DNA of 64,000 nucleotides, taken from NCBI GenBank assembly GCA_017935245.1, contig JAGBHZ010000011.1:107286-171285 (forward strand). Direction: 5' to 3'. A model generated the notes under the pieces. It saw only the letters and a program-made list of their open reading frames with translations. It made no database searches and was not told the DNA's origin. The DNA comes from Alphaproteobacteria bacterium (GTDB taxonomy: Bacteria > Pseudomonadota > Alphaproteobacteria > Rs-D84). This document shows, in pieces, positions 2 through 61,750 of this stretch (its first letter is position 1; the number at the start of each line of letters is the position of its first letter). The translations under genes were made by a program, and so were the position numbers.

Positions 2-313
2 ATTCAACAAAAGCGCGAAGAATTATATATTCAAGCATGTCATGTGTTGATGGAACACGATAAATACTGTCGCGACCACGAATGGCCTAAAAAGTGCAAA
101 GAAATGTTCAATGAATTACAGGGCAAAATGCTGATATATGCATCAAAGAAGATTTATAAACAATATTATGCATTAGATACTGAAATTTGTTCTGTTTATG
201 CTAAAATGAAATCCAAGAAACAACGTGAAGAAATGTCAAACCAGATAGCCGACAAGGTAGAGGCGTTTGCATCAGCAATGCGTAAAGAACTGGGTATAAA
301 AGGAGTGTTATAA
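2..313 (+). CDS. Partial CDS truncated at the 5' end by the window edge. Function unknown. Its stop overlaps the hsdR start (TAATG), which suggests translational coupling. It might be the C-terminus of an HsdS-like or other R-M-associated protein.
   Basis: The frame stays open back to position 2 with no upstream stop. The ATG at 44 is the first Met, and the ORF ends at 313, exactly where the hsdR ATG begins. I recognise no motif in it. Confidence 0.4.
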   Translation: MQQKREELYIQACHVLMEHDKYCRDHEWPKKCKEMFNELQGKMLIYASKKIYKQYYALDTEICSVYAKMKSKKQREEMSNQIADKVEAFASAMRKELGIKGVL

Positions 314-3300
314 TGGCCGGCGATAACCTGAAAGAAATCAATTTAGAAGCAGCAATAGAAGCATATTTGACATCTGATATGGGTGGATATGCCAAGGGTA
401 ATCCGGATAAATTTGACCGTAAATTGGCACTGGATAAAGATACGCTGATTGAATTTGTAAAGAACACTCAACCCAAGGAATGGGAACGCTATACCCAGAC
501 GTATCCAACAAATCCCGAAGAAGTATTTATCGACAGGGTGCACACAGTTATCAAGCAAGCGCCAAAGGGGTTATTGCAAATTCTGCGCACCGGATTCAAA
601 GACAGGGGAATTGAATTCAAGCTGTGTTATTTCAAGCCAGATAACAGCATGAATGAAGCGGATGTAGAACTGTATAACAAAAACATCCTGCATTGCACAC
701 GCCAGTTGCATTATTCGGTATCCAATGAAAACAGCATTGATATTGTTTTATTCTTGAACGGCATACCGGTTGTGTCAATGGAGCTAAAAAACCAATTCAC
801 AGGCCAAGACACATCAAACGCAATCGACCAATACAAATTTGACCGAAATTCCAAAGACACAATATTCGAATTCAAGAACAGGGTGTTTGTGCACTTTGCG
901 GTTGACCTGTATGAAGCGTACATGACAACAAAACTGGATGGTGTAAAGACATTTTTCTTGCCGTTCAATCAGGGTTCAAATGGTGCGGGCAATATCGGTG
1001 GCAAGGGCAATCCAGCAAATCCCGATGGCTTTACAACGTCTTATTTGTGGGAAAAAGTGTTATGTAAAGATATGCTGATGGAAATAATTCAAAAGTATCT
1101 GCACATCCAAATCACACGGAACAAAAAGACCAAGGCAATCGAAAAAGAAACGATGATATTCCCGCGCTATCACCAGTTGGACGTTGTTACAAAATTGGTA
1201 GATGACGTAAAACAAAATGGCGCAGGAAAAAGTTATTTGATTCAGCACAGTGCGGGTAGTGGCAAATCAAACTCTATTGCGTGGTTAGCATATCACCTAG
1301 CAAGCCTACATAACGACCAGAACGAGAAGATATTCAATTCGGTTATCGTTCTGACGGACAGGCGCGTTTTGGATTCACAGCTGCAGGATACGATTACACA
1401 ATTTGACCATACAACCGGCCTTGTTGAGCCAATCAAAGACGGTTCAAAACAGCTGCGCGATGCAATCAACGAAAAGAAAGCGATTATTATTTCAACTATC
1501 CAAAAGTTCCCGATTATTTACAAGGAATTGGTATCTGAAAACAGGTCTTTTGCCATTATCGCGGACGAGGGGCACAGCAGTCAATCCGGTAAGGCCGCAG
1601 CAAGTGTTATTCAGGGTTTAGGCGATACAGAAGAAGAAACACTGAACAAATTTGCCGAACAAGAAGCACAGACCGAAGAAAAAAAAGATGAAGAAATGGA
1701 CACCTTGGAAAACACACTAAAATCCCAAGGTCAGCATGACAATTTATCTTTCTTTGCATTTACAGCCACACCCAAAGCAAAGACACTGAACCGATTTGGG
1801 ACAAGGCAGCCGGATGGGTCATACAAGGCCTTTCACGTGTACTCAATGCAGCAGGCCATAGAAGAGGGATTTATCTTGGACGTATTGCAGAACTATACGA
1901 CATACAAAACATACTACAAATTGATAAAAAAGACAGTAGATGACCCGCAACTGGAATCGGCTAAGGGTGCAAAGGAAATAACAAAATTCCAAACCCTGCA
2001 TCCAACAAATATTTCACAAAAGACAACCATTATGCTGAATCATTTTGTGAATGTTACAGCATCTAAAATCAACGGGCGCGCAAAGGCTATGGTTGTTACA
2101 CCGTCCAGATTGCACGCAGTTCGTTATCTAAAAGAATTCAAAAAGCAGATAGAAAAGAACCAAATCAAGGGTGTAGATGTTCTGGTGGCGTTTTCTGGGG
2201 AATTGAAAGATGCACACGAAACATATACAGAAACTATGCTGAATGTCGATAAGAATGGTGCACATATCAAAGAGACACAGTTGCCGGAATACTTCAAAAA
2301 CGATTTCAACATCCTGATTGTAGCGGACAAGTATCAGACAGGATTTGATGAACCGTTGCTGCATACTATGTTTGTGGATAAGAAATTGAATGACGTAAAG
2401 GCAGTGCAGACATTATCCCGACTGAACCGCACAACCAAGGGCAAGACAGATACATTTGTGTTAGACTTTGTAAATGAACGCGAAGATATCAAAAACTCAT
2501 TCCAAAAGTATTTCCAGCAGACAATTCTTGAAAAGGAAATTGACCCGAATGAATTGTATAAGCTGCAAAGCGTTATAATGGAGGCGCAAATCTGTTATCC
2601 GAATGAAATTGAGCAGTTTGCAGACATCTATTATTCAGGTAAAGAAACAGAAAAAGACCTTGGTAAATTATCATCTATTCTGAAACCGGCCTTGGATAGA
2701 TATAATGTGAAAACACCAGAAGACCAAGATAAGTTTAGAAAAGCACTTGGCAACTTTATCAAAATGTACGACTTTATTATTCAGATTGTCAGACTGATGG
2801 ATAAAGATTTACAGAAGTTCTTTGTTTACGGTAAGTTCCTGCACAAATGTCTGAGAAAAGGCAAATCAGAACGTGTGGATTTATCAAACAAACTAGTTCT
2901 GGAATACATCAAACAAACCAAACAAGAAGAGGGTTCAATCGTACTGGAAGACAAAGTCGGGAAAGCTAAACCTGTAGTAGGCGGAACAGGCAGCAGTACC
3001 AAGAAAACAGAACCCCTGTCAGCCATTATCGAAAAGTTCAACGAGCGCTTTGGAACAAGTTTTTCTGGTGAAGATAAAGTGCTGGAACAGGTTATTGATG
3101 ATATGAGCAAAGACCCGTATCTTGTCATATCAGCACAAAACAAAGATAAAACTGCTTTCAATACCCAATTTGATACAAAGTTCACCGATGTAATGATGGA
3201 CAGACATGCCAAGAATGATGAATTTTTCAAAGAGCTTCTGTCCGACAAAGATAAACTGGATTTCTTGAAAGATATGCTGGTACAGGTTGCTTATAAAAGT

Positions 3301-3315
3301 TTGGGGAATAAATAA
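313..3315 (+). CDS. hsdR: Type I restriction enzyme R subunit (HsdR family endonuclease/helicase)
   Basis: 1000 aa. The N-terminus has a PD-(D/E)xK-like nuclease motif (VDIVLF...ELKN). Helicase motif I is AGSGKSNS and motif II is IADEGHSSQSG (DEAH-box-like). The length is typical for HsdR. No hsdM or hsdS lies downstream in the window. Confidence 0.8.
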   Translation: MAGDNLKEINLEAAIEAYLTSDMGGYAKGNPDKFDRKLALDKDTLIEFVKNTQPKEWERYTQTYPTNPEEVFIDRVHTVIKQAPKGLLQILRTGFKDRGIEFKLCYFKPDNSMNEADVELYNKNILHCTRQLHYSVSNENSIDIVLFLNGIPVVSMELKNQFTGQDTSNAIDQYKFDRNSKDTIFEFKNRVFVHFAVDLYEAYMTTKLDGVKTFFLPFNQGSNGAGNIGGKGNPANPDGFTTSYLWEKVLCKDMLMEIIQKYLHIQITRNKKTKAIEKETMIFPRYHQLDVVTKLVDDVKQNGAGKSYLIQHSAGSGKSNSIAWLAYHLASLHNDQNEKIFNSVIVLTDRRVLDSQLQDTITQFDHTTGLVEPIKDGSKQLRDAINEKKAIIISTIQKFPIIYKELVSENRSFAIIADEGHSSQSGKAAASVIQGLGDTEEETLNKFAEQEAQTEEKKDEEMDTLENTLKSQGQHDNLSFFAFTATPKAKTLNRFGTRQPDGSYKAFHVYSMQQAIEEGFILDVLQNYTTYKTYYKLIKKTVDDPQLESAKGAKEITKFQTLHPTNISQKTTIMLNHFVNVTASKINGRAKAMVVTPSRLHAVRYLKEFKKQIEKNQIKGVDVLVAFSGELKDAHETYTETMLNVDKNGAHIKETQLPEYFKNDFNILIVADKYQTGFDEPLLHTMFVDKKLNDVKAVQTLSRLNRTTKGKTDTFVLDFVNEREDIKNSFQKYFQQTILEKEIDPNELYKLQSVIMEAQICYPNEIEQFADIYYSGKETEKDLGKLSSILKPALDRYNVKTPEDQDKFRKALGNFIKMYDFIIQIVRLMDKDLQKFFVYGKFLHKCLRKGKSERVDLSNKLVLEYIKQTKQEEGSIVLEDKVGKAKPVVGGTGSSTKKTEPLSAIIEKFNERFGTSFSGEDKVLEQVIDDMSKDPYLVISAQNKDKTAFNTQFDTKFTDVMMDRHAKNDEFFKELLSDKDKLDFLKDMLVQVAYKSLGNK

Positions 3316-4333: not shown

Positions 4334-4809
4334 TTGTTCTTTCCTTACTTTGCTTTTGGGTATAAAAATCTATTTGCCGGTTGGCATTGGTAACGGTAAT
4401 TTGAGACCGCAGGATGAACCACACAATACCCAAACACCGGTTTTCGCCATCGTGCGCGCACCTGTACCGTGGAACAAACGCACAATTCGAAGACATATAA
4501 ACAATCAAAACTTTGATTCTTTGCATATCTCTGGCGCACTGAAAAGGCTATGCGTGCATTGTTTTGAAACTCTCTAAAGGCCACTTTTGAGCATTTTCGG
4601 TATTTTTCTATTTACAAACCGCTTTTTTCTGCTATTATAGCCTACGCAAACAGCAAGTTCAGATTCATTGAATTTGATTTGGAGCAATTTTGGAGCATGC
4701 TTTGTAGCATCTTTGGGCATTTCATAGCAGGAAATAGCAACAAAGATACAAACGCCAAAAAAGCCCAATATATTACAAATCTGAATAAAAGCTGTTAGTG
4801 TAAAGTTTT

Positions 4810-4886
4810 GGGTGGTTAGCTCAGTTGGTTAGAGCGTTACGTTGACATCGTAAAGGTCGTTGGTTCGAGTCCAATACCACCCACCA
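4810..4886 (+). tRNA. tRNA-Val (anticodon GAC)
   Basis: Full cloverleaf: acceptor GGGTGGT/ACCACCC, D-arm GCTCAGTTGGTTAGAGC, anticodon stem TTACG/CGTAA with loop TTGACAT, T-arm GGTTCGAGTCC, and an encoded CCA. Confidence 0.93.
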
Positions 4887-17412: not shown

Positions 17413-18324
17413 ATGAGAAAGGAAATCAAGAACGCTTTACCGGTTCAGGCAAATACTTCATTGGTTGCGGCCCGTGGGGTCAGTGATGAATCCGGCCTGG
17501 CGCAATATATTCAAACGGTGCAAAAAATTCCAATTCTGTCCGCCGAAGAAGAATATGAATATGCCACAAAATGGGTTAAAACACGTGATGCGTCCGCCGG
17601 GGAAAAATTGGTTGCATCCCATCTGCGGATGGTGGTGTCGGTGGCGTATGATTTTAAAAACTATGGCATTCCGGTTGGTGATTTAATCGCCAGTGGTAAT
17701 ATGGGATTAATGCAGGCACTGCAAAAATTTGACCCAGAAAAAGGTTTTCGATTTTCAACGTATGCAATGTTCTGGGTGCGGGCAGAAATATATGAAACAA
17801 TTCTTAATAATTGGTCAATTGTTAAAATTGGGACATCTGCAAATCAAAAACGTGTGTTCTTTAACCTGGCGCGGGCAAAACGTGCGCTGGGGATTATGGA
17901 CAACAATATGTCCGATGAACAAACAAAACAGGTTGCAGATTATCTGAACGTGCCTGAAAATGATGTAAAACGTATGGCAACGCGTGTTGGGGCACGGGAT
18001 TTATCACTGAACGCACCCGCACACAATAACGAAGACGGCACAACAGATATATTGTCCAATCTGGCCGATAATAAAACAAATATAGAAGAGGGACTGGAAC
18101 AACTGGAATTCCGGCGGCGTGGTTATGAATTATTGCGAAAGCATCTTGAAAAATTACCAGAACGCGACCGCGAAATATTAAAGGCACGACGTTTGTCTGA
18201 TCCGGTGGTTACACTGGAATCACTGTCCCAGAAATATGGAATTTCACGTGAACGTGTTCGACAAATCGAAGAACGGGCGTACAACAAATTACGCGACGCA
18301 ATTTTAAAAGACAGTCAGGGGTAA
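17413..18324 (+). CDS. rpoH: RNA polymerase sigma-32 (heat-shock sigma factor)
   Basis: Sigma-70 regions 2 and 4, the RpoH box (QKRVFFNLARAKR), and PILSAEEE. 303 aa. Confidence 0.9.
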   Translation: MRKEIKNALPVQANTSLVAARGVSDESGLAQYIQTVQKIPILSAEEEYEYATKWVKTRDASAGEKLVASHLRMVVSVAYDFKNYGIPVGDLIASGNMGLMQALQKFDPEKGFRFSTYAMFWVRAEIYETILNNWSIVKIGTSANQKRVFFNLARAKRALGIMDNNMSDEQTKQVADYLNVPENDVKRMATRVGARDLSLNAPAHNNEDGTTDILSNLADNKTNIEEGLEQLEFRRRGYELLRKHLEKLPERDREILKARRLSDPVVTLESLSQKYGISRERVRQIEERAYNKLRDAILKDSQG

Positions 18325-28848: not shown

Positions 28849-28903
28849 AAATTTATATTTCCGTATTTATCCAATTGATTTTTTCTGATATAATCATAAC
28901 ACA

Positions 28904-31156
28904 ATGGCAAAGAAGTTCAACATCTTATCCGCATCCGGCAAAGGAAAAGGTCTGGGGATATTTAAATCGGGTTCATACAAAGAACACGAAAAGACCCCAA
29001 TGGCGCAAATATTTTGGCGCATTCGCTGGGGATGTGGTATTTGGATTGTGGCCGCGTTGGCGTTTGGCGTATCGTTTATAATTGAACATATTTGGCGATA
29101 TGGGTGGAGTCCCGCCAGCGAAATCTGGACCAAAACATATTTAATGAACATGCTGACCAGTGGTGGTATTTCTGTGTTGGCGGAAATTCCATCATGGGTA
29201 TGGCGTTGTGTATTTCGCACTGATTTGGCATGTATGGTACCGATTTTGCCAATTATTGCGTACTATTTTCTGGCCGATGGGACGTTTACAGATGAATTTA
29301 ACCCGCATGGCAAAGATAAATTTGATGAAAAATCTTCTAATAAAGCCACCGCCGCCGATATTAAAAAGATGGCACAAAATTTCAAAAACAGCGAAGGGCT
29401 GTTCAATGGTTTTATGATGGTGTTGGGGTATTTCAAAAACAAAGGCAAAAGTATGCCACTAATGTTTGATGAATGCCTGTCAACATTGTGTGTTGCGCCC
29501 CCGGGAACCGGTAAAACCGCCGGGGTTGTTATTCCAACAATATTGGATTGCGATACAGTTTCAATGATTATTAATGACCCGAAACCAGAACTGAAACAAA
29601 CAACCAGTGGTTATCGTTCGACCATTGGGCCGGTGTTTATTATGAACTGGGCCGGCCAAGATGACCCGGCACGCGGTATATATTATCCGTCATGGAATCC
29701 GCTATCGCCCGAACACGTGCCATTTAACCAAGAACAGCGCGATTTGTATATTGATTCAATTTGCAACACACTTATCCCAGACCGTTCAGGTTCGTCGGCC
29801 GATCCACACTGGACCATAACTGGGCGGGCGGCGCTGACTGGATTTGTACAATATATCGTGTCCAAGGTTGAACGGGCCAAGGCCGATGATTATTTCTATG
29901 CACGCCTGGCCAATGGTACATTTAACGCCGAAGATGCGGCCGTGTTGTCGGATTATTATTTATCAATGATGACGGATTCAAACGCATATGCTGCGCATGC
30001 AATGCTGCAACGTGGGGAATTAAACGCAATGAACTATGTCCATGTTGGAACATGGGTAAATATCCCGGATGCGTGGCGGGGCAAAGAAGCATCTTTCCCA
30101 ATGATTCTGGATTGGCTTACATCAAGTCAGATTGCAATTTCACAACAATTAGAAGAACGACGCAAGGCCGGCGACCAGATGGTTATGATGGCAGATCCAT
30201 TAAAGGAATTGTTCCAAAACGCCGTGGACGAAGCGCGCCAATACGCATATTCACACCGCGCCGTCCAAGAATTAACACAATTGGCAAATACCCCGGACAA
30301 GGAACGTGGTTCTATTATGTCAACGGCGTTATCGGGACTAACAATTTTCCGTAATGCGGCGGTACGTAATCGAACATCACATTCGGACTTTCATTTCTCA
30401 GACCTGCGCGGGATGCGCGACCCACGTGATGGAAAAATGAAACCGGTTACGGTCTATTTGTCTATTAATATGGTTGATGCCCAGGCACTTAATCCAATCA
30501 CCGCGATATTTATTGAATTAATGTCAAACTTTCTGTTGGCAAATGCACCGGGGGGCAACCACCAAGGACAAGAATTAGGGCCATGTCCTGTGTTATTCGT
30601 TTTAGACGAAATGCCAAAAATGCAAAAAATGCAGGCCGTTATCCAGGGACCCGACCTGGGGCGTGGACAAAAGATTTCATACCTGCTAATCGGCCAGGAT
30701 TTAAACCAGATTGCTGAAAAATATGGACACGAAGCCGCCGATACAATCATATCGACAACCGCTGCTAAAATTGTTTTACGTCAAAATGACCCAGGTACCG
30801 CCGACCGTTTTTCTAAAATGATGGGCATGAAAATGAAAAAAGAAAAAGGTGCCGACGGTAAAGAAGTTACCAAGGAATCATTGCTTTATACACCAATGGA
30901 TATTATGAAGTTGGAAGAGGGAAAACAACTGGTTATTATCCAGGGGCACTATAACCGCCCGATTGAGGCAGACCAAGAAAGATGGTTCTTGAACAAAACA
31001 CCGGTTCAAAAAGAACTGTTTAAAAAGGTTCAAATGGGCGAAGCACCACCATTACCAGAATTCTTGGTTGCGTCGCATCATCGTGCGCTGGGGTTCAGTG
31101 GGACACCACGAATATATTATCCCGCAACAAAAGAAATTAAAATTTTATCAGAATAA
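28904..31156 (+). CDS. virD4: Type IV secretion system coupling protein VirD4/TraG family
   Basis: N-terminal transmembrane helices, Walker A (VAPPGTGKTAGVVIPTIL), a Walker B region (VLFVLDEMPKMQ). 750 aa. No other vir gene lies nearby. Confidence 0.8.
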   Translation: MAKKFNILSASGKGKGLGIFKSGSYKEHEKTPMAQIFWRIRWGCGIWIVAALAFGVSFIIEHIWRYGWSPASEIWTKTYLMNMLTSGGISVLAEIPSWVWRCVFRTDLACMVPILPIIAYYFLADGTFTDEFNPHGKDKFDEKSSNKATAADIKKMAQNFKNSEGLFNGFMMVLGYFKNKGKSMPLMFDECLSTLCVAPPGTGKTAGVVIPTILDCDTVSMIINDPKPELKQTTSGYRSTIGPVFIMNWAGQDDPARGIYYPSWNPLSPEHVPFNQEQRDLYIDSICNTLIPDRSGSSADPHWTITGRAALTGFVQYIVSKVERAKADDYFYARLANGTFNAEDAAVLSDYYLSMMTDSNAYAAHAMLQRGELNAMNYVHVGTWVNIPDAWRGKEASFPMILDWLTSSQIAISQQLEERRKAGDQMVMMADPLKELFQNAVDEARQYAYSHRAVQELTQLANTPDKERGSIMSTALSGLTIFRNAAVRNRTSHSDFHFSDLRGMRDPRDGKMKPVTVYLSINMVDAQALNPITAIFIELMSNFLLANAPGGNHQGQELGPCPVLFVLDEMPKMQKMQAVIQGPDLGRGQKISYLLIGQDLNQIAEKYGHEAADTIISTTAAKIVLRQNDPGTADRFSKMMGMKMKKEKGADGKEVTKESLLYTPMDIMKLEEGKQLVIIQGHYNRPIEADQERWFLNKTPVQKELFKKVQMGEAPPLPEFLVASHHRALGFSGTPRIYYPATKEIKILSE

Positions 31157-45794: not shown

Positions 45795-45929
45795 TTATTT
45801 TCTTTTGAAACCCTGTTTCGCTTTGAACTTAGGATTATCTGGATCGATTAAGATTACCTGCTTGCCACGACGGATTTGTTTTACGTTTCCGCGTTTCTTC
45901 CAAGCCTTTAATGAACTTAAAAATTTCAT
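45795..45929 (-). CDS. rpmJ: 50S ribosomal protein L36 (bL36), zinc-ligand-free variant. It is missing from the ORF track because it is under 60 aa.
   Basis: The minus-strand translation is MKFLSSLKAWKKRGNVKQIRRGKQVILIDPDNPKFKAKQGFKRK (44 aa). It matches the L36 pattern MKVxSSLK...RRG...VI...NP[KR][FH]K[AQ][KR]QG, but the Cys/His zinc ligands are replaced. A GU-containing hairpin plus T-tract terminator follows it on the minus strand at about 45741-45772. Confidence 0.7.
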   Translation of the reverse strand: MKFLSSLKAWKKRGNVKQIRRGKQVILIDPDNPKFKAKQGFKRK

Positions 45930-46016
45930 GTCTTAATCCTTTGGTACGGTGGGTATTATATACGCTTTTTGTGAAAAATCAAATATTAATATTATTTTTT
46001 GTTGTTTTTGTAGGGC

Positions 46017-46221
46017 CTGTTGAAATTGTTGAAAACAGTTATTCACTTTTTATCAACCGGTTTTTAACAATTATTTCCAGGTTTTCTGCGGGGTTGTGAT
46101 TGGTGTGTTGAAAAATACCCCTGTTAATTTAACAGTTAAAAAATACACAGTTTTCAACATAATTAACAATTTTTTTGGGGATGTTTTTATACTTGTTGAA
46201 AAATGTTGAAATTGGTATAAT
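46017..46221 (+). promoter_or_regulatory. virB3 upstream region with at least six GTTGAAA(A) motifs on both strands, a 15-bp palindrome, and an extended -10 promoter
   Basis: GTTGAAA occurs at about 46019, 46028, 46107, 46195 and 46205 on the + strand and at 46151-46158 (TTTTCAAC) on the minus strand. A CTGTTAA-t-TTAACAG palindrome sits at about 46121-46135. TGgTATAAT (46213-46221) gives an extended -10 about 25 nt before the virB3 ATG. The ribosome-binding site is AAGAGAG. Confidence 0.5.
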
Positions 46222-46246: not shown

Positions 46247-46543
46247 ATGAAACAGCAAGTTTTAAAGGCTTTAGCAAATCCGTCGCGCATATTTTATGTG
46301 CCGTATTCACTGGCTGTGATTAATTTTTTTGTGCAATTTGTTATTTTTATGGTCGTTTTTGTCGCAGATTTGTTAATTCATGGTACTGATTCTATGGTTA
46401 ATCCGGCGTTTTTCTTGATTTCTGTTATAATTGTACACTCTATTTTGGCGATTTATTCCAAGCGTGATCCTCAAATTGGGCAAATTATCACAGCAAGAAT
46501 ACAATTAATGAAAAAAAAGATTCCAAACAGGTTGGCGGCGTAA
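46247..46543 (+). CDS. virB3: Type IV secretion system protein VirB3
   Basis: About 98 aa from the internal Met (MKQQVLKALANPSRIFYVPYSLAVINFFVQF), with two transmembrane helices. It sits directly upstream of virB4. The tracked ORF starts earlier, at 46175. Confidence 0.75.
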   Translation: MKQQVLKALANPSRIFYVPYSLAVINFFVQFVIFMVVFVADLLIHGTDSMVNPAFFLISVIIVHSILAIYSKRDPQIGQIITARIQLMKKKIPNRLAA

Positions 46544-46546
46544 GAA

Positions 46547-48967
46547 ATGAAAGAATTTTTTAGTTATTTTGCAGGAGGCGAATTTACAATCACTACGACA
46601 ATTTTAGTGATGATTGTTTTGGCGGTGTTTTTGGTAATGATGATGTATGTGCCGACACTGACCCGGCGGATTTTTCCGCGTTTTGGGTATGCAAAATATG
46701 CAAACTATTTACCGTTTAAAACCGTTTTTACAGATAATTCAATTGAATTGACGGATGGTTCTCTTATCCGGGCGTATCGGGTCCAGGGAATTCAGACCAG
46801 TATGCAAGATGATAAAACAAAAGAAAAATTCTTGGATTTGCGGACGCAATTGTTTAATCAAATTCGTGATCCAAATGTAACGCTGCGTTTCTATACGGTG
46901 CGTGATGCAATGGATGAAAATACAAACTATGAATTTGACCAGCCGACATTACAGCGTATCTATAACAAATGGAAAAGTCAGGGATTAAAGATATTTTTAA
47001 ATAACTACTATATCGTTATATCGGTTGCAGGGGCGGATGCACGCGCAAAATTAAATCAATATGGAAACTATGTTGAATCGATATTGGCGGCGTACAAGCC
47101 AAGTGTCTTGAAAAATAACGCACCGGATAATATGGCGCGATTCTTTGGGCGTATTTTATCCCCAATCAGTAAGCCACAGCCAAAAACATGCAATAATGAT
47201 ATTGCAAATATGGTTACGGTTGATGATGTTGAATTTATGCGCAATGGTATTATTCGTTATATCAGTGGTGGGGCACAATCGTTTGCGTCAATTGTATCGT
47301 TTAAAATTTCACCAGATTATTTAGATGAAGAATTTTATGATACGGTTTCTACAATCCAAACAGAAATGATTTCTATGAACGGGTTTGGTATTATGGGGGC
47401 GGCCGATGTTGAATCAACAATTCGTCAGCGTCGATCAACCGCCGATGAAAAGGTTCTGAAATCAACAGAAGAGCAAATTTATGCGGTTGAATCTGCGATG
47501 GATGAAAATATATCTGGTAACCAGACGTTGGTTAATTATTATCCAATGTTTGTTATATTTGGGGCAACCGTTGAAGATGTACAAAAATATGTCGGTGAAT
47601 TTAAAAAAATTGCCGCGTCCTTTGGAATTTCGCCGGTTGTTGAAACATTTGCCAGTAAGGTTGCATGGTTTTCATTAATACCAGGATTTAACGTCTTTCC
47701 ACGCAGTTTTAAGTTGTTATCAAAAACCGCCGCAATCAGTATTCCAATGTCCAGTACGCCACGCGGGGTCGAAAATTCAGATTGGGGTCCGGGGCCATTG
47801 GTTATTTTCCCAACCGCCCAAGGGACACCGTATCAATTCCAATTTCATGTTTCTGATAAACCGGCCGCCGTGGCACATACATTGACAATCGGGCCGACCG
47901 GTGGTGGTAAAACAACTTTGTTTTCGTTCCTTATTGCGCAAAGTTTGCGTTTCCCAAAATTAAAAGCATTTTTCTTTGACCGTAACAAAGGGGCCGAGAT
48001 TTTTACACTAGCGGTTGGGGGAAAATATATCACAATGCAAGGGAAAGAAAAAAATACAGACCCAATGGCGCATACATTTCAAACACATTTAAATCCACTA
48101 AAAATGCCGGACAGTGCCGCAAATCGTGCGTTTTTACGTCGGTGGTTTTCAATTATAACCGGACAAAATGACGCCGCGTCAATGGATGAAATTGCGCGTG
48201 CGGTTTCGGTTAATTTTGATTATTTGTCAGATAAAGACAGATTGTTAAAAAATTTATGGGAAAGTTGCTTTTCTTCATCTGGAAATATGAGACCGGCATT
48301 AAAAAAATGGGTCGATCCATTGCAATATGGGTACATGTTTAATGAAAATGAAGATACGCTGGATTTACAATCGCGTTTGACAACATTTGATTTTACAGAA
48401 ATTTTGCAGGATGAAACGTTGGCGCCGGCGGTAATTTCTTATATCTTGCATCGTATTAATACAACAACGGTTTCAGGGGGAAATCCGTCGTTAATTATGA
48501 TTGACGAAACCGCACCAATGCTTGAAAACAAGATGTTCCGTGATAATTTTGTGGCAGGCCTGCAAGAAGGGCGTAAAAATCGCCAGGCATATATGGCCGC
48601 ATTCCAACGTGCAAATGTTCTGGACAAGTTGGGAATTGGTGATGTGGTTCGTGGCCAGGCACAAACAGTTCTGTTTTTCCGTAACCCGGCGGCGGATGCA
48701 CGTGATTATGAACATTGGAATTTAAATCCGTTGGAAATGGCATTTATTCAAGGTAAAGCGTATCCAAACCTGAAAAGGGCGGTGTTGTTATCGCGCCCGG
48801 TTACCGGGGAATCGGTTGTTTTAAATACCGAGTTAGGAGGTCTGGGGAATATGTTGCGGTTATTTGAATCGGGGCGCCCATCGGTATTATTGGCCGAAGA
48901 ATTATATAAAATGTACGGCAGTAATTTTGTTAATGAATACCTTAAAAAGCAAGGGGCATTGGATTAA
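46547..48967 (+). CDS. virB4: Type IV secretion system ATPase VirB4
   Basis: 806 aa. Walker A is LTIGPTGGGKTTLFSF and Walker B is LIMIDETAPML. This is the CagE/TrbE/VirB4 architecture. Confidence 0.9.
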   Translation: MKEFFSYFAGGEFTITTTILVMIVLAVFLVMMMYVPTLTRRIFPRFGYAKYANYLPFKTVFTDNSIELTDGSLIRAYRVQGIQTSMQDDKTKEKFLDLRTQLFNQIRDPNVTLRFYTVRDAMDENTNYEFDQPTLQRIYNKWKSQGLKIFLNNYYIVISVAGADARAKLNQYGNYVESILAAYKPSVLKNNAPDNMARFFGRILSPISKPQPKTCNNDIANMVTVDDVEFMRNGIIRYISGGAQSFASIVSFKISPDYLDEEFYDTVSTIQTEMISMNGFGIMGAADVESTIRQRRSTADEKVLKSTEEQIYAVESAMDENISGNQTLVNYYPMFVIFGATVEDVQKYVGEFKKIAASFGISPVVETFASKVAWFSLIPGFNVFPRSFKLLSKTAAISIPMSSTPRGVENSDWGPGPLVIFPTAQGTPYQFQFHVSDKPAAVAHTLTIGPTGGGKTTLFSFLIAQSLRFPKLKAFFFDRNKGAEIFTLAVGGKYITMQGKEKNTDPMAHTFQTHLNPLKMPDSAANRAFLRRWFSIITGQNDAASMDEIARAVSVNFDYLSDKDRLLKNLWESCFSSSGNMRPALKKWVDPLQYGYMFNENEDTLDLQSRLTTFDFTEILQDETLAPAVISYILHRINTTTVSGGNPSLIMIDETAPMLENKMFRDNFVAGLQEGRKNRQAYMAAFQRANVLDKLGIGDVVRGQAQTVLFFRNPAADARDYEHWNLNPLEMAFIQGKAYPNLKRAVLLSRPVTGESVVLNTELGGLGNMLRLFESGRPSVLLAEELYKMYGSNFVNEYLKKQGALD

Positions 48968-49583
48968 GTCGGTGTTAAAACGTATTGGTATTTTGTCTGT
49001 TTTTCTGTGTTTGCCGGCGTTTGCCAATGATTGTGTGTCGTATAAAATGACACCAAAAATAACAATATCTGTACCAACATGGACCAAAGAGGTTGTTCAG
49101 CCCCTGGATGAAATGGATTTATGGCATGGTAATGTTATTGCAACAATGGTTGATAACTATGATATTGTTGCCGATATCACATCAATCGAAGATGGTTTTT
49201 GTGTTGGTATTAAACAGGTTGATGCAGAAATTGGGTATTCTAATTTCTTGGTCCAGGTTGATATAAGACATAAACCAAATACATGTTCTTATGATGCGGT
49301 GTTGGCGCATGAAGATCAACATATTCGCGAATATTTATCCGTTATTGATGATGCGCGCATGGGGTTGCATAATGCATTGTACAGTGCGGCGGATTCAGTT
49401 ATGCCGATTTTTGTAAAAGATTCATTGGATATTGATTTGGCAATTGAACAACTAAATGAAAAATTACAATCGCATCCAGAACTAATTTTGATAAAACAAA
49501 AAATTAAAAGCGAAGAAGAAATTCGTAATAAAAAAATAGATCAAAATGATATGGGTGAATCATTGAAAAAATGCTTGAATTAA
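48933..49583 (+). CDS. Predicted secreted HExxH zinc-metalloprotease-like protein (DUF922-like), overlapping the end of virB4
   Basis: Signal peptide (MNTLKSKGHWIKSVLKRIGILSVFLCLPAFA) and an HEDQH motif (AHEDQHIREY). The tracked ORF 48864..49583 begins inside virB4, so the true start is probably 48933 or close to it. Confidence 0.5.
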   Translation: MNTLKSKGHWIKSVLKRIGILSVFLCLPAFANDCVSYKMTPKITISVPTWTKEVVQPLDEMDLWHGNVIATMVDNYDIVADITSIEDGFCVGIKQVDAEIGYSNFLVQVDIRHKPNTCSYDAVLAHEDQHIREYLSVIDDARMGLHNALYSAADSVMPIFVKDSLDIDLAIEQLNEKLQSHPELILIKQKIKSEEEIRNKKIDQNDMGESLKKCLN

Positions 49584-57098: not shown

Positions 57099-58361
57099 TT
57101 GTTAAACCAAGTTGTATATGTTAATCATAAAAAATACGCAACCGGTCTGTTTTGGCAACCGATTGGTGCGGGCTTTGTTGCACGTAATTATGCCCGGAAT
57201 TTAGCGCGTTCAATCGATAAAAAATTAAATCTTTTTGTTGAATATCGTGGGATGATTGGTTTGGGGACGCGGCGCAATGGTGTGCGGGCCGGTATCCCAT
57301 CGATTGCCGCGGAAATTATGGAATCTTTGTCGGAATATACGTCGTTTCTGGGGGCGTTTGCAACCGATAAACGCTATGTTGTTGTGGCGGTTCGTAATGG
57401 CGTTATTTTAGAAGATAAAGTTTTTAATACCGAAGCAGATGCACGTGCAGAATATGTTAAATTATCAGAAATACCCGATTGGGGGGCATTAATCGCGCCC
57501 GGTGCATGGGGTATGCCACGTGCAATTGAACGTTTGTTATCAGATGTTGTGTCGCATGGTGTGCATGCAAACCTGCATACAATCAGTCGGGCGGGTTCAC
57601 GTATGACGTCTGTGTTGATGATTGCGTCGTTTGTGGTTATTTTGTTATATTTATTCCGTGAACCAATTGGTCAGATGTTGGCGCCACGTCCACAAATTGC
57701 AGAAATTAATCCAGAACTGGTTGCGGAATATAAAAAGCAAATCGAAGAAAAAAACAAAGAATTAGATGTGCAATTTGAAATTGAAAAACCGTTGCCACCC
57801 GAACCGATTGTGATGCCGTTTGAAAATTTACCAGACCCAATGGCGCGTGCAGAAATTTGCTATCAGGCGATTGGTTTTGTTATGCAGCCTGTTGTTGGGT
57901 GGAATCAGACAATTGCAACATGTGCACAAACATATGTTAGTGCAGAATTAAAGCGTGATTTTGGTACATTGACAGAATTTTATAACGTTGCGGGTGATTT
58001 AATGCCCGGGGCGTTGGTTGCCGAAGAATCAGAAAACCTGTTGATTGTTCAGGCGAATTTGCCGGCTGTTAAAACACAGTCGTCCCAGGATGAACGTGAT
58101 GCCCAGACGATTGTTCGTGATGTAACAAGTTTGTTTCAATCAATTGATGAAAATCTGGATATTCAAATCATTACAGATACATTAACAAATGGTGTTGATG
58201 TTGCAACGGTTGATGTTGTTGAAATTGCAGTGGCTTCTAAGTTAAAACCAATGCAATTTATGGAAATATTTAACGAATTTGGCGGTGTTTATATGACGGC
58301 CGTAACATGGGATGCGGTGCGTCGCATATGGAACTATGAGGTGATAATCTATGCAAAATAA
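57099..58361 (+). CDS. Bitopic inner-membrane protein of a type IVb pilus-like assembly module (BfpC/R64 PilO/GspL-like architecture)
   Basis: 420 aa. A cytoplasmic N-domain of about 165 aa is followed by a single transmembrane helix (MTSVLMIASFVVILLYLF) and a periplasmic domain of about 235 aa. It is the first gene of a four-gene cluster that ends with a GspE-family ATPase and a platform protein. Confidence 0.5.
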   Translation: MLNQVVYVNHKKYATGLFWQPIGAGFVARNYARNLARSIDKKLNLFVEYRGMIGLGTRRNGVRAGIPSIAAEIMESLSEYTSFLGAFATDKRYVVVAVRNGVILEDKVFNTEADARAEYVKLSEIPDWGALIAPGAWGMPRAIERLLSDVVSHGVHANLHTISRAGSRMTSVLMIASFVVILLYLFREPIGQMLAPRPQIAEINPELVAEYKKQIEEKNKELDVQFEIEKPLPPEPIVMPFENLPDPMARAEICYQAIGFVMQPVVGWNQTIATCAQTYVSAELKRDFGTLTEFYNVAGDLMPGALVAEESENLLIVQANLPAVKTQSSQDERDAQTIVRDVTSLFQSIDENLDIQIITDTLTNGVDVATVDVVEIAVASKLKPMQFMEIFNEFGGVYMTAVTWDAVRRIWNYEVIIYAK

Positions 58362-59025
58362 ATTTTTATGTGTTTTATTTGGAATGTTTGTTTTTGTGTT
58401 TGGTGCGCATGCCGCCGAAGAGGTTGATGTTGATATAACAGAAGATGTTTTGGTCGAAGATATGTCGGCCGATGCCGTTGCCGCGTACCAGGTCGAAGGG
58501 TCGTTGTTTCAACAAATTACCGACCTGGAACAGGAAAAGGTTTTAATGCAGTTGGAAAAAGAACGTGCGCAATTGGATTTGGAATTAGATAGATTGGCGG
58601 CGGAAAAAATTAAACTGCATATGGAAATTGATACACTGTCGGGACGTGCAGAACAACAACAACAGCAAATTGAAACAGAAAAAGCAAAATTAGAGGCCGA
58701 GGCAGCGCGTCTGGAACTGGAAAAAGAAAGAATACTGGCGACAGAGGTTGAACCAATGTCAACATCTTCGTCGTATTCAAATACAGCCAAAGAAGAAGTT
58801 GTTAATGATGTTGATTTATCAAAAAAATATAAACTGGTTAATGTTATTGGGGCCGGTGCGCAATTACAGGCAACCGTTGCGGATTTGTCCAGTGGGCAAA
58901 ATAAACGGGTTAGTGTAGGCAAGGTTTTAGATGGTTTTTCCGTTAAATCAATATCGTTGGAAGATGGTGTTACATTTGTTAAAGATGGAAAAACACAAAC
59001 ATTGAATGTTGGGACGGCAAATTAA
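58351..59025 (+). CDS. Periplasmic coiled-coil protein with a C-terminal beta-domain (PilP/BfpU/GspC-HR-like)
   Basis: Signal peptide (VLFGMFVFVFGAHAA), a long coiled-coil (LEKERAQLDLELDRLAAEKIKLHMEID...QQQQQIETEKAKLEAEAARLELEKE), and a C-terminal VIGAGAQLQATV...VLDGFSVKSISLEDGVTFVKDGKTQTL domain. It overlaps the upstream gene by 11 nt. Confidence 0.45.
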   Translation: MQNKFLCVLFGMFVFVFGAHAAEEVDVDITEDVLVEDMSADAVAAYQVEGSLFQQITDLEQEKVLMQLEKERAQLDLELDRLAAEKIKLHMEIDTLSGRAEQQQQQIETEKAKLEAEAARLELEKERILATEVEPMSTSSSYSNTAKEEVVNDVDLSKKYKLVNVIGAGAQLQATVADLSSGQNKRVSVGKVLDGFSVKSISLEDGVTFVKDGKTQTLNVGTAN

Positions 59026-59040
59026 TATACCGGGAATAAA

Positions 59041-60678
59041 ATGGCAGAAAAACAAAATAATATCGTTGGAAAAAATACAGATGTGATTAAATTGTCTGTG
59101 CCAATTGGTCTGGAAAATTCCGAGACCAAGGATATTATTGATTATCTGTTTTCAAATGGTAATCGTTTGTTGACGGCAACCGGTGCAGAATTTGAATTGC
59201 CACGTGATACCCAGGGAATTATCGCATATTTTTCAGGTGGGGAAATTATTATATCACGCACACATAAATATGATGGGCGTGTGTTGGCATTTGTTGATTT
59301 AATGAAAAAACGTGGTCGTGTTGTTCATGAACCGTTTTATTCAGATATGGGTTTGGTGTCGGCAATTTATAAAACATACGAAGCACGCCTGGGCGGGGGT
59401 GCGCGTTCGCGTATGGATTATGATAACCAAATGCAAAAAGATTTTGTCGATATTATTGCACGCGCCGCCGCACAAAAGGTGTCAGACGTTCATATCGAGG
59501 TTGCCGACCAAACAACAATTTATTTCCGTATCGATGGCAGTATGCAACCCGTTATGGAATATAATTCAGGGTGGGGGGAATCATTTGTGCGTGCCGCGTT
59601 TGCGTCTGCGGATATGTCAAATGCAAACTATGCCCAGAATGAATATCAGTCTGCACAAAAAGATGGGCGTACGCCACTGCGCGGGACAAAAGATTTATAT
59701 CTGCCGTCGGGAATTCTGAGTGTTCGTATGCAATTTAATCCAATTGCGTTCGGTTCCCGGTATGTGGTGATGCGATTGTTGTATGATAATCCATCCGAAG
59801 GTATTAAAACCGAACAAGAATTTGGACCATATGAGCAAAGATTATTGGCGCGTATGCGTTCGTTCCCAACAGGTTTGGTTATTGTCGCAGGTCCAACCAG
59901 TTCGGGAAAATCAACGACATTGGTTCGTAATATGTCGATGATGTTAAAAGAACGTAATTATGAAATAAATATGATTACGGTGGAAAATCCGGTTGAACAA
60001 AAAATATTTGGTGCGCGTCAGATGCCGGTTGTAAATACAACAAACGAAGAACAACGCGAAGATAAATATACAGAAGCGTTGGCGGCCGCGCTGCGAAGCG
60101 ATCCGGATACGCTGATGGTTGGGGAAATTCGTACGTTGGCGGCGGCAGAATTAACCGTGCGTGGTGCATTGTCGGGGCATAATGTTTGGACAACGCTGCA
60201 CGCGAATTCGGCATTGGCCGCGTTAACACGTTTATTAGATTTGGGAATTGAACCATTCAAGTTAAAAGAAGAAACGTTGATGCGTGGTCTGGTATCAATG
60301 CGTTTGTTTAAAAAACTGTGCCCGCATTGTCGCCAGAAGTTATCTGAAAATCCAAATCGTTCGGCGTATCGGCGTGTTATGGATGCATTTGGTGATATCG
60401 GCTTGAACCAGGTTTATATTCGTGGTCCGGGGTGTGAACACTGTAAAGGAACGGGAACATTGGGACGTATCAAGGCCGGCGAGATTATTATTACAAACAG
60501 TGAATTTTTAGGTTTGGCATTGTCTGGAAATACAGATGGGGCGGTGCGTTATTGGCTGGAAGAAATGGATGGACGCACATTAAAAGAAGCCGCAACATCA
60601 TTAATGTTACAAGGAATTATCGGTGTTGATGAATTAGAACGCTGGGTTGGACAATTGGATCAGCCGGGGGTGTATTGA
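59041..60678 (+). CDS. GspE/PilB-family secretion ATPase (type II secretion/type IV pilus assembly ATPase)
   Basis: 545 aa. N2 domain (VSDVHIE...IYFRIDG), Walker A (GPTSSGKSTTL), Asp box, His box, and a tetracysteine zinc motif (CPHCRQ...CEHCKG). Confidence 0.85.
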   Translation: MAEKQNNIVGKNTDVIKLSVPIGLENSETKDIIDYLFSNGNRLLTATGAEFELPRDTQGIIAYFSGGEIIISRTHKYDGRVLAFVDLMKKRGRVVHEPFYSDMGLVSAIYKTYEARLGGGARSRMDYDNQMQKDFVDIIARAAAQKVSDVHIEVADQTTIYFRIDGSMQPVMEYNSGWGESFVRAAFASADMSNANYAQNEYQSAQKDGRTPLRGTKDLYLPSGILSVRMQFNPIAFGSRYVVMRLLYDNPSEGIKTEQEFGPYEQRLLARMRSFPTGLVIVAGPTSSGKSTTLVRNMSMMLKERNYEINMITVENPVEQKIFGARQMPVVNTTNEEQREDKYTEALAAALRSDPDTLMVGEIRTLAAAELTVRGALSGHNVWTTLHANSALAALTRLLDLGIEPFKLKEETLMRGLVSMRLFKKLCPHCRQKLSENPNRSAYRRVMDAFGDIGLNQVYIRGPGCEHCKGTGTLGRIKAGEIIITNSEFLGLALSGNTDGAVRYWLEEMDGRTLKEAATSLMLQGIIGVDELERWVGQLDQPGVY

Positions 60679-60679
60679 T

Positions 60680-61750
60680 ATGAATAAACTGGAAATGTTA
60701 TATGCAAAACTGGTGTTCAGATTCAGTACGGAAAAACGTATGGCGATTTGTCGAAAACTGGCGTCGTTGTTGCGTAATGATTTTACGTTGATGGATGCGC
60801 TGGGGCGTTTGGAAATGATTGAATCAAAAGGTGGTAAAAAACCAAACGAACCATTTGCAATCGTTATGCGTCAGTGGCAAAAAAACCTGGAACGGGGGAT
60901 GAGTTTTTCAGACGCAACACGTGGGTGGGTGCCACCAAATGAAACACTGTTGGTAACCAGTGGTAATATTTCAAATTTGGTGTTGGCGCTGGAAAATGTT
61001 GGGCGTGTTGTTGATGGTACACAACGTATTTCACGTGCAATGCGCGGTGCAATTGCGTACCCGTTATTTTTATTAGCGTTAACGTTTGGTATTATTTTAA
61101 TGGTGGGAATTTATCTGGTGCCGCCATTGGCAGATGTGGCCGGTGATAATATTGTATGGCGTGGGTCGGCACGTTCTTTAATCGCTTTGTCGGATTTTTC
61201 AATCGCATATTGGCCGTGGATTGTTGGTGTCTTTGTTGGGCTAATATTAATTATGTGGCTAAGTTTGGCGAATTGGTCCGGAAAAGTACGCGCCATGTTT
61301 GACAAGTTGCCACCATGGAATATTTATAAAATTCATATGGGTGTTGGTTGGATGATGGCGTTATCGGCAATGGTTGGGTCGGGGGTTACAATCCCAGATG
61401 CAATGCGTATGTTGGCAGATAATGCAAATAAATATCTGCGGTCTATATTGGACAGTGCACTGCATTTTATCGCAAATGGGGATAACCTGGGGGTTGCATT
61501 AAATAAAACCGAACGTGAATTTCCAGATGCAGATATTGTTGGGGATTTAACAATATATGCCGATATGAACGGATTTGATGAAAATTTAAGTCATGTGGCG
61601 AATGATTACCTGGCGGAATCGGTTCGAAAGATGGAATCTATTTCTAATATTATGAACAGTTTGGGAATTTTGCTGGTGTCTGCGATAATTGCATGGGTGG
61701 TATTGGGCACGTTCCAGATGCAAGACCAGATTACAGCGGCCCTGTCATAA
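60680..61750 (+). CDS. GspF/PilC-family inner-membrane platform protein with a single T2SSF domain (BfpE/R64 PilR-like size)
   Basis: About 356 aa from MNKL. The tracked ORF starts at 60647, inside the ATPase end; a stop-TGA-t-ATG junction gives 60680. It has an N-terminal cytoplasmic helical domain and three or four transmembrane helices. Confidence 0.75.
   Translation: MNKLEMLYAKLVFRFSTEKRMAICRKLASLLRNDFTLMDALGRLEMIESKGGKKPNEPFAIVMRQWQKNLERGMSFSDATRGWVPPNETLLVTSGNISNLVLALENVGRVVDGTQRISRAMRGAIAYPLFLLALTFGIILMVGIYLVPPLADVAGDNIVWRGSARSLIALSDFSIAYWPWIVGVFVGLILIMWLSLANWSGKVRAMFDKLPPWNIYKIHMGVGWMMALSAMVGSGVTIPDAMRMLADNANKYLRSILDSALHFIANGDNLGVALNKTEREFPDADIVGDLTIYADMNGFDENLSHVANDYLAESVRKMESISNIMNSLGILLVSAIIAWVVLGTFQMQDQITAALS

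Follow-up and report, generated by a model that had tools for sequence, protein, structure and literature searches.

What does a dense array of short repeats do in front of the type IV secretion system (T4SS) genes virB3 and virB4 in a gut alphaproteobacterium? In the 64-kb stretch of DNA analyzed here (hereafter, the window), the repeat region at 46017–46221 lies inside a 317-bp gap of 29% G+C between a divergent rpmJ-like gene and virB3. An earlier note on this DNA had taken the array for a multi-site operator of a transcription factor that controls T4SS expression. We propose instead, from sequence evidence, that the rpmJ–virB3 intergenic region is probably oriC, the site at which replication of the chromosome starts in this Candidatus Enterousia genome.

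Nine conserved boxes between rpmJ and virB3

The array is built on the heptamer GTTGAAA, which occurs five times on the plus strand (46019, 46028, 46107, 46195 and 46205) and once on the minus strand (46152), giving six exact copies within 193 bp, all of which extend to TGTTGAAA. The five or more plus-strand copies and the single inverted copy described previously were thus confirmed; the 9-bp spacing claimed for both pairs holds for 46019/46028, and that of 46195/46205 is 10 bp. Dinucleotide-preserving shuffles of the 319-bp intergenic region (n = 20,000) contained 0.16 copies on average and three at most, and not one reached six, so the possibility raised in the earlier note that the array occurs at the frequency expected from background composition does not hold. 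Across the whole window, GTTGAAA matched 32 times against 22.3 ± 4.2 expected, and the 26 matches outside the cluster were about what shuffling predicts. The relaxed box TGT[GT][GA]A[AT]A[AT] was found eight times in 300 bp, where 0.32 were expected, and the next-best spot in the window has three. The region is non-coding and not a CRISPR array, as had been judged before, and an Rfam search of it returned nothing credible.

A VirB4 scan of species-representative genomes recovered 80 orthologous loci (73–92% identity), all from gut or rumen metagenome-assembled genomes, and those with an assignment belong to Candidatus Enterousia. This group of the order Rs-D84 has genomes below 1 Mb and is thought to be partner-dependent (PMC12306168). 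In every related locus that extends far enough, rpmJ lies on the opposite strand about 310 bp from virB3, and in 79 related species the words occupy nine fixed positions between the two genes. Relative to the virB3 ATG, the plus-strand boxes are centred at −224, −215, −136, −108, −48 and −38 and the minus-strand boxes at −181, −91 and −82, and the distances of the heptamers to the ATG are the same in nearly every species. The alignment shows islands of conservation at the boxes, with poorly conserved stretches between them. Conservation in related genomes, whose absence the earlier note had listed among its refuting observations, is found in 79 species, and its proposal of a multi-site array on both strands, presumably bound by protein, survives in the form of a conserved element. 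A VirB4 protein search returned close relatives only and so added no phylogenetic depth.

We compared the boxes one by one in 74 aligned species. The distal pair consists of P1 (46018–46026, plus strand), TGTTGAAAT or ATTTCAACA on the other strand, three mismatches from the DnaA consensus TTATCCACA, and the contiguous P2 (46027–46035, plus), TGTTGAAAA or TTTTCAACA, two mismatches from it; P2 is exact in 54 of the 74 species, and its variants there include TGTGGAAAA and TGTTGATAA. Three of the nine positions, P3, P5 and P7, are degenerate in this window. P3 (46061–46069, minus) reads TTTTTAACA (equivalent to TGTTAAAAA), and its position is occupied by TGTTAAAAA in 46 species and by TGTTGAAAA in 25. 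P4 (46106–46114, plus) is TGTTGAAAA, and P5 (46134–46142, plus), assigned to repeat family D1, has decayed here to AGTTAAAAA, most species having AGTTGAAAA. P6 (46151–46159, minus; TTTTCAACA) and P7 (46160–46168, minus; a degenerate TAATTAACA, with TGTTAAAA in most species) together form an inverted copy of P1–P2 (pair I1). P8 (46194–46202, plus; TGTTGAAAA) lies over the −35 of the virB3 promoter and is exact in 72 of the 74 species, and P9 (46204–46212, plus; TGTTGAAAT) falls in the promoter spacer, stops 1 bp short of the TG in the extended −10 and is exact in 62. An extra box at 46039–46047 on the minus strand, TTATTCACT, matches the relaxed DnaA box TTATNCACA at eight of nine positions and sits in poorly conserved columns of low information. 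The 15-bp palindrome CTGTTAATTTAACAG, which the earlier note had reported together with the array, has the sequence and place described (46121–46135) but is specific to this window and no part of the conserved element: its left arm is poorly conserved, and its right arm runs into the decayed box P5.

Box identity and a predicted unwinding module

Which protein would read these boxes? The word TGTTGAAAA is the reverse complement of TTTTCAACA, two mismatches from TTATCCACA, and the cluster holds boxes within that distance at P2, P4, P6 and P8, all of which are TTTTCAACA. The identical 9-mer has been published twice: TT(T/A)TCAACA is the proposed DnaA box of mollicutes (PMC3322544), and DoriC uses ‘ttttcaaca’ as a non-perfect DnaA box for Lawsonia (PMC2671203). 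The organisms in question were Mollicutes and a deltaproteobacterium, whereas here the box dominates the predicted origin of an alphaproteobacterial lineage (order Rs-D84). At homologous positions in other Enterousia species, TGTGGAAAA, TGTTGATAA and TGTTAATAA replace TGTTGAAAA, all of them steps towards the canonical box TGTGGATAA. Taken with the substitutions in the phages described below, these replacements define a site family, TGT[T/G][G/A]A[A/T]A[A/T], that includes the canonical box. The repeated word TGTTGAAA(A/T) is most likely this lineage’s version of the DnaA box, to judge from these matches. A scan for TTATCCACA with up to one mismatch found no cluster.

Beside the distal pair, three further features follow in order. 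The GC cluster GGCC (46014–46017) forms the spacer between the boxes and a period-3 tract, TTG TTG TTT TTG TAG (45999–46013, plus strand), which is DnaA-trio-like and has the canonical 3′-GAT-5′ solely at its box-proximal triplet. Adjoining the triplets is an AT-rich tract (45973–46000), the predicted DNA unwinding element. Nearest-neighbour energies place the least stable 40 bp of the gap at 45973–46012, a stretch that spans the AT tract and the triplets and ranks in the top 1% of the window. The easily melted AT tract directly adjoins the triplets, a placement shared with the 13-mers of E. coli oriC. The triplet tract could be parsed in 50 species: 25 of them have TAG in the box-proximal place, the spacer is 4 bp long in 25, and some relatives have more TAG (TAG TAG TTG TAG TAG in L011; TAG TAG TAG TTG TAG in L015). 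What is conserved is the T[T/A]G period-3 pattern. At the inverted pair P6–P7 we found no second unwinding module, that is, no conserved GC cluster or triplet tract.

This grammar is close to that of the basal unwinding system defined with B. subtilis as the model (Pelliciari et al. 2021, PMC8287927). Its rules call for a better box with at most two mismatches to TTATCCACA, a tandem box with at most four, a gap of at most 3 bp between them, a box-to-trio spacer of at most 16 bp (most commonly 13 bp) with a GC-rich gap of about 4 bp, 3′-GAT-5′ as the first triplet, and at least three contiguous trios with a central adenine, (.A.){3,} (PMC8287927). In the window, P2 and P1 have two and three mismatches with a gap of 0, the GGCC spacer is 4 bp, and the first triplet, 3′-GAT-5′, lies 13 bp from P2. 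The two systems share the contiguous boxes, the 4-bp GC spacer, the period-3 tract with that first triplet at that distance, the AT tract and the presence of more boxes on both strands within about 200 bp; they differ in that the boxes here read TTTTCAACA in place of TTATCCACA, T takes the place of the central A in four of the five triplets, and the element is not beside dnaA or dnaN. Deviant trios without a central A were anticipated in the same study (PMC8287927).

Comparison with E. coli gave a similar picture. On the strand that reads TGTGGATAA, the oriC of strain MG1655 has the same left-to-right order and orientation, 13-mers ... ttattaggatcgcactgccc TGTGGATAA, and it too is distant from dnaA. 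The mioC promoter flanking the E. coli origin is overlapped by DnaA boxes, a likeness to the virB3 promoter here. Unlike the E. coli origin with its gidA/mioC flanks, the Enterousia element has no GATC sites and no 13-mer repeats, and both flanking promoters point away from it, one of them driving T4SS ATPase genes. A positive-control scan for TAG triplets followed by a canonical box recovered GTAGTAGTAGGGGC TGTGGATAA TGTGGATAA with 5–10 canonical boxes nearby, and the architecture of these modules is identical to that of the Enterousia element except for the box sequence. Textbook modules of this kind lie on contigs filed as viral (L203, L207 and L220, with 10 canonical boxes; L223, with seven; L206, with five), which are either bacterial origins mis-binned as viral or the origins of DnaA-using phages or plasmids.

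Replication-strand skew around the array

In this genome the replication signal is visible only at four-fold degenerate sites. Bulk GC skew tracks coding direction (about +0.15 to +0.2 for the sense strand), which hides it. To the right of the site, the four-fold sites of plus-strand genes have a coding-strand GC skew of 0.469 and an AT skew of 0.056, against −0.180 and 0.285 in minus-strand genes; to the left, the values are 0.151 and 0.196 in plus-strand genes and 0.238 and 0.043 in minus-strand genes. The AT skew mirrors the GC skew: genes directed away from the site are rich in G and T, and those directed towards it are not. Fitted to 51 genes, a binomial switch-point model reached its maximum at 46,100 (log-likelihood −2449.5, against −2470.0 without a switch, a gain of 20.5), and the likelihood declines on both sides of that position. 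Because the G-rich strand leaves the site in both directions, the sign of the skew is that of an origin and not of a terminus.

The same switch was seen across the group. Pooled over the 79 species, four-fold GC skew is 0.075 in left plus-strand genes, 0.193 in left minus-strand genes, 0.360 in right plus-strand genes and 0.068 in right minus-strand genes, so that the strand switch at the site appears both in the window and in the pooled species; bulk skew alone is silent. Genes that lie right/plus in some species and left/minus in others keep a high skew in both settings (lpxK, 0.606/0.592; DUF374, 0.417/0.409; lpxC, 0.397/0.385), and the skew of topA and dnaG is low whether they are left/plus or right/minus. 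Indeed, lpxK, lpxC, DUF374, the rml genes, topA and dnaG switch sides among species while keeping their direction relative to the site, which is the signature of rearrangements symmetric about it. It is the combination of the box cluster, the identity of the variant box, the grammar of the unwinding module and, as independent evidence, this skew switch that leads us to predict oriC here.

Several observations weigh against an origin at this place. The boxes are two to three mismatches from the DnaA consensus. Read from the boxes, the triplets of the window are TAG TTG TTT TTG TTG, with a central A in the first only, so that the rule of three contiguous trios fails; the strict rule holds in 2 of the 50 parsed species, L011 having four TAG triplets of five and L015 a run of three. 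The bulk GC skew keeps its sign at 46 kb, the strand effect is about 0.04 on the left against about 0.32 on the right, and the ten genes immediately to the left mostly point towards the site. We found no dnaA in the window or in the roughly 5 kb beyond its left end, and no conserved CtrA, IHF, GANTC or GATC sites in the region, sites of a kind usual in alphaproteobacterial origins. A CtrA-controlled origin of the Caulobacter type was considered and set aside: TTAA-N7-TTAA occurs in only 24 of the 74 aligned species, at varying positions, and is absent from this window. Two of the objections lose their force once the variant box and the coding-strand effect are recognized: the lack of a canonical-box cluster, and the flat bulk skew, which shows no sign change at 46 kb because the coding-strand effect dominates it.

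The best-surviving alternative accepts DnaA as the binding protein and denies the origin. The array could be a datA-like titrating locus or a DnaA-regulated divergent promoter region, with oriC elsewhere; the identity of the DnaA box would hold equally, the triplets are mostly T-centred and the unwinding module therefore imperfect, dnaA is not nearby, and the left-side genes mostly point towards the site. We nevertheless consider this improbable, because the four-fold skew switch peaks here with the sign of an origin in both the window and the pooled species, and because the box pair, GC spacer, triplets and AT tract are ordered and spaced exactly as in an unwinding module.

From the observed grammar, its conservation and the strand switch, we infer how an origin at this site would work. 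DnaA would bind nine or ten variant boxes over about 200 bp. On the contiguous pair P2–P1 (46018–46035), it would extend as an ATP-DnaA filament over GGCC onto the T[T/A]G triplets and melt the adjoining AT-rich tract (about 45973–46012) beside the rpmJ promoter; helicase would then be loaded, and replication would run both ways. The flanking promoters, rpmJ leftwards and virB3 rightwards, would fire away from the origin, and DnaA on P8 and P9 would hinder RNA polymerase at the virB3–virB4 promoter, repressing or timing the operon. The model for this last step is E. coli, in which DnaA occupancy hinders transcription at mioC and dnaA.

The virB3 promoter and the gokushovirus modules

The predicted virB3–virB4 promoter has a sigma-70-type extended −10, TGGTATAAT, at 46213–46221 (plus strand), which matches TGnTATAAT, lies in near-invariant columns and is 25 bp before the ATG; a generic promoter scan did not list it owing to its weak −35 (TTGTTG). 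A promoter-like site for rpmJ lies at 45955–45982 on the minus strand (TTGATT, 16 nt, TATAAT; 10/12 in the consensus scan), in a block conserved in the 74 aligned species. A weak box-like word within its spacer (45970–45978), TGTGAAAAA in the window and TTTGAAAAA in most species, mirrors the placement of P9 in the virB3 promoter spacer. As the earlier note had stated, the last pair of repeats overlaps the −35 region and spacer of a conserved TGnTATAAT promoter for virB3–virB4. Sites overlapping a core promoter, as P8 and P9 do, are what an operator would show; this is equally true of DnaA-repressed promoters.

Could a dedicated transcription factor, such as an OmpR/PhoB-type response regulator reading tandem repeats, switch the T4SS operon from here? 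The tandem pairs with 9–10 bp spacing, their presence on both strands and the proximal pair over the −35 and spacer of a conserved promoter would suit such a factor, and the core TTGAAA resembles the Agrobacterium vir box, TNCAATTGAAAY. Short repeated words near the −35 of secretion promoters are likewise the pattern of the VirG vir boxes of Agrobacterium and of the PmrA and CpxR sites of Legionella Dot/Icm. In those systems many vir or effector promoters carry the sites, whereas this array is single and accompanied by an unwinding module and a strand switch. No site was found upstream of virD4 (28849–28903), the other T4SS gene in the window, or upstream of a pilus-like operon (57099–61750), and scans with exact words, with one mismatch and with R at position 5 detected no second cluster in the 64 kb of the window, out of a genome of about 0.9 Mb, or in related loci totalling 1.06 Mb, which was also the outcome of the search for clustered motifs at other vir genes that the earlier note had suggested. 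Moreover, the GC cluster, period-3 tract and AT tract conserved at the distal pair would be superfluous in an operator, the word is a published DnaA-box variant that interchanges with near-canonical boxes, and the replication-strand switch falls at the same site. The proposal of a dedicated operator of a T4SS regulon is thus unsupported, and we rate a dedicated factor as very unlikely.

Other binding motifs fared no better. An RpoH −35 (CTTGAAA) has no matching −10 at any of the sites, the alphaproteobacterial LexA box and parS are wrong in spacing or symmetry, and ArcA, PhoP or OmpR direct repeats would leave the flanking module unexplained. Returning to the predicted origin, control of virB3 by a protein bound at the proximal boxes is possible as a side effect of it, and DnaA at P8 and P9 may gate the virB3–virB4 operon.

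The genes around the array are as follows. The rpmJ-like gene (45795–45929, minus strand; ribosomal protein L36, 44 aa) is transcribed away from the array, and its Pfam L36 match of 21.7 bits is under the 26.1 cut-off. On the plus strand, virB3 (46247–46543, with the true start at 46247; 98 aa; Pfam VirB3, E = 2.7e-7) is followed by virB4 (46547–48967; 806 aa; Pfam CagE_TrbE_VirB) and by a third gene of the operon (48933–49583, in an open reading frame from 48864), which is conserved in 80/80 loci and has no Pfam match. The product of this third gene, which has a signal-peptide-like N-terminus and an HEDQH motif, may be an unrecognized T4SS component. The flanks of the 80 loci contain no further vir gene and no obvious regulator. 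A VirD4-type coupling protein is encoded alone at 28904–31156, between rsmE-like and pheT genes and distant from virB3–virB4, so the T4SS genes are dispersed in the manner of Rickettsiales. The short region upstream of this virD4 gene contains a separate TTGAT...TATAAT promoter-like site and no DnaA-type box. The operon at 57099–61750 is pilus- or type II secretion-like and encodes a PilO-like accessory protein (PF06864), a T2SSE ATPase and a T2SSF platform protein; a published survey mentions type IV pili solely for another lineage and not for Rs-D84 (PMC12306168). An RpoH-like sigma factor (17413–18324; 303 aa; sigma-70 regions 1.2, 2 and 4) adjoins an unassigned 341-aa open reading frame and an OmpA-family protein. 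At the left edge of the window lies a complete type I restriction-modification system (hsdM, hsdS, hsdR; 313–3315 plus about 5 kb upstream, L225:1761–8179).

As a specificity control, we scanned viral contigs for the tandem pair and obtained at least 120 matches. Among the 120 matches listed, 38 were contigs of 3.5–7 kb carrying the word four or more times on the same strand, and those of these small contigs that we examined were gokushoviruses (Microviridae) whose sole non-coding region carries 8–9 TGTTGAAA words. The blastn alignments between phage contigs and Enterousia loci span 50–68 bp at 78–88% identity and extend past the words into the sequence before the distal pair (ATATATTACTTGTTGTAGTAGTCGTAGTAGGGCCTGTTTAAATTGTTGAA in phage L170; ATATATTATTTATT-TAGTAGTTGTAGTAGGGGCTGTTGAAATTGTTGAA in Enterousia L011). 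Phages and Enterousia share an AT-rich tract, period-3 TAG/TTG repeats, a short GC cluster and two contiguous 9-mers, which is the grammar of the basal unwinding system of bacterial origins. At least 26 phage contigs carry the module; the box that adjoins its spacer is TGTGGAAAA, which differs from the canonical box by one mismatch, in some and TGTTGAAAA, in the same place, in others. Matches on giant-virus and other contigs (L133:1382–1560 and L165:115–195) were rejected as chance, GTTGAAA lying there within a coding tandem repeat.

These phages form a clade of human and pig gut gokushoviruses of 5.4–6.2 kb, with the module in their only non-coding region (L116:1018–1220; L195:600–760; L088:5081–5240; L183:2588–2760; and L228, GenBank KX513868.1, locus 4620–4830). 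Their module runs from an AT tract through TTG TTG TAG NNG TAG TAG TAG and a 4–6 bp spacer to TGTGGAAAA or TGTTGAAAA and then GTTGAAAAG, to which 8–9 further TGTTGAAA boxes are added, arranged 4 + ~40 bp + 4. This arrangement suggests that a single-stranded DNA phage recruits DnaA and that its host uses this box dialect, be it Enterousia, Mollicutes or another. The searchable literature yielded no paper linking Microviridae with DnaA boxes.

Near-identical modules in gokushovirus genomes, together with the 29% G+C of the region, might prompt the view that the Enterousia array is a chance product of AT-rich composition or the remnant of a mobile element or phage insertion, but this is scarcely credible given that none of the composition-preserving shuffles reached the observed count, that positions, flanking genes and length are conserved in 79 species, and that tblastx found no phage genes in the window or the loci.

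Replication origins are familiar elements, and this variant of the box was already published. New here are the predicted location of oriC in this uncultured lineage and the combination, in a predicted alphaproteobacterial origin, of TTTTCAACA boxes, mostly T-centred triplets and an embedded T4SS promoter; the module in the gut gokushoviruses was the less expected finding. We also entertain, tentatively and as a rather unlikely extension, that the origin doubles as a control element of the T4SS ATPase operon, with P8 and P9 tying virB3–virB4 to the initiation cycle, and that gokushoviruses recruit the DnaA of a host with this dialect, possibly Enterousia.

Growth-rate estimates from metagenomic coverage, and any future genetic tools, require the location of the origin in this reduced-genome gut lineage. 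With its variant box and mostly T-centred trios, this alphaproteobacterium lends itself to testing the strictness of the DnaA-trio rule, and the locus is a caution that a repeat array before virulence genes is not always a virulence operator. The phage module could help to trace the unknown hosts and the replication of gokushoviruses. If DnaA does gate virB3–virB4, expression of the secretion system would be tied to the cell cycle, and this link to initiation would sit in a host-dependent bacterium with a reduced genome.

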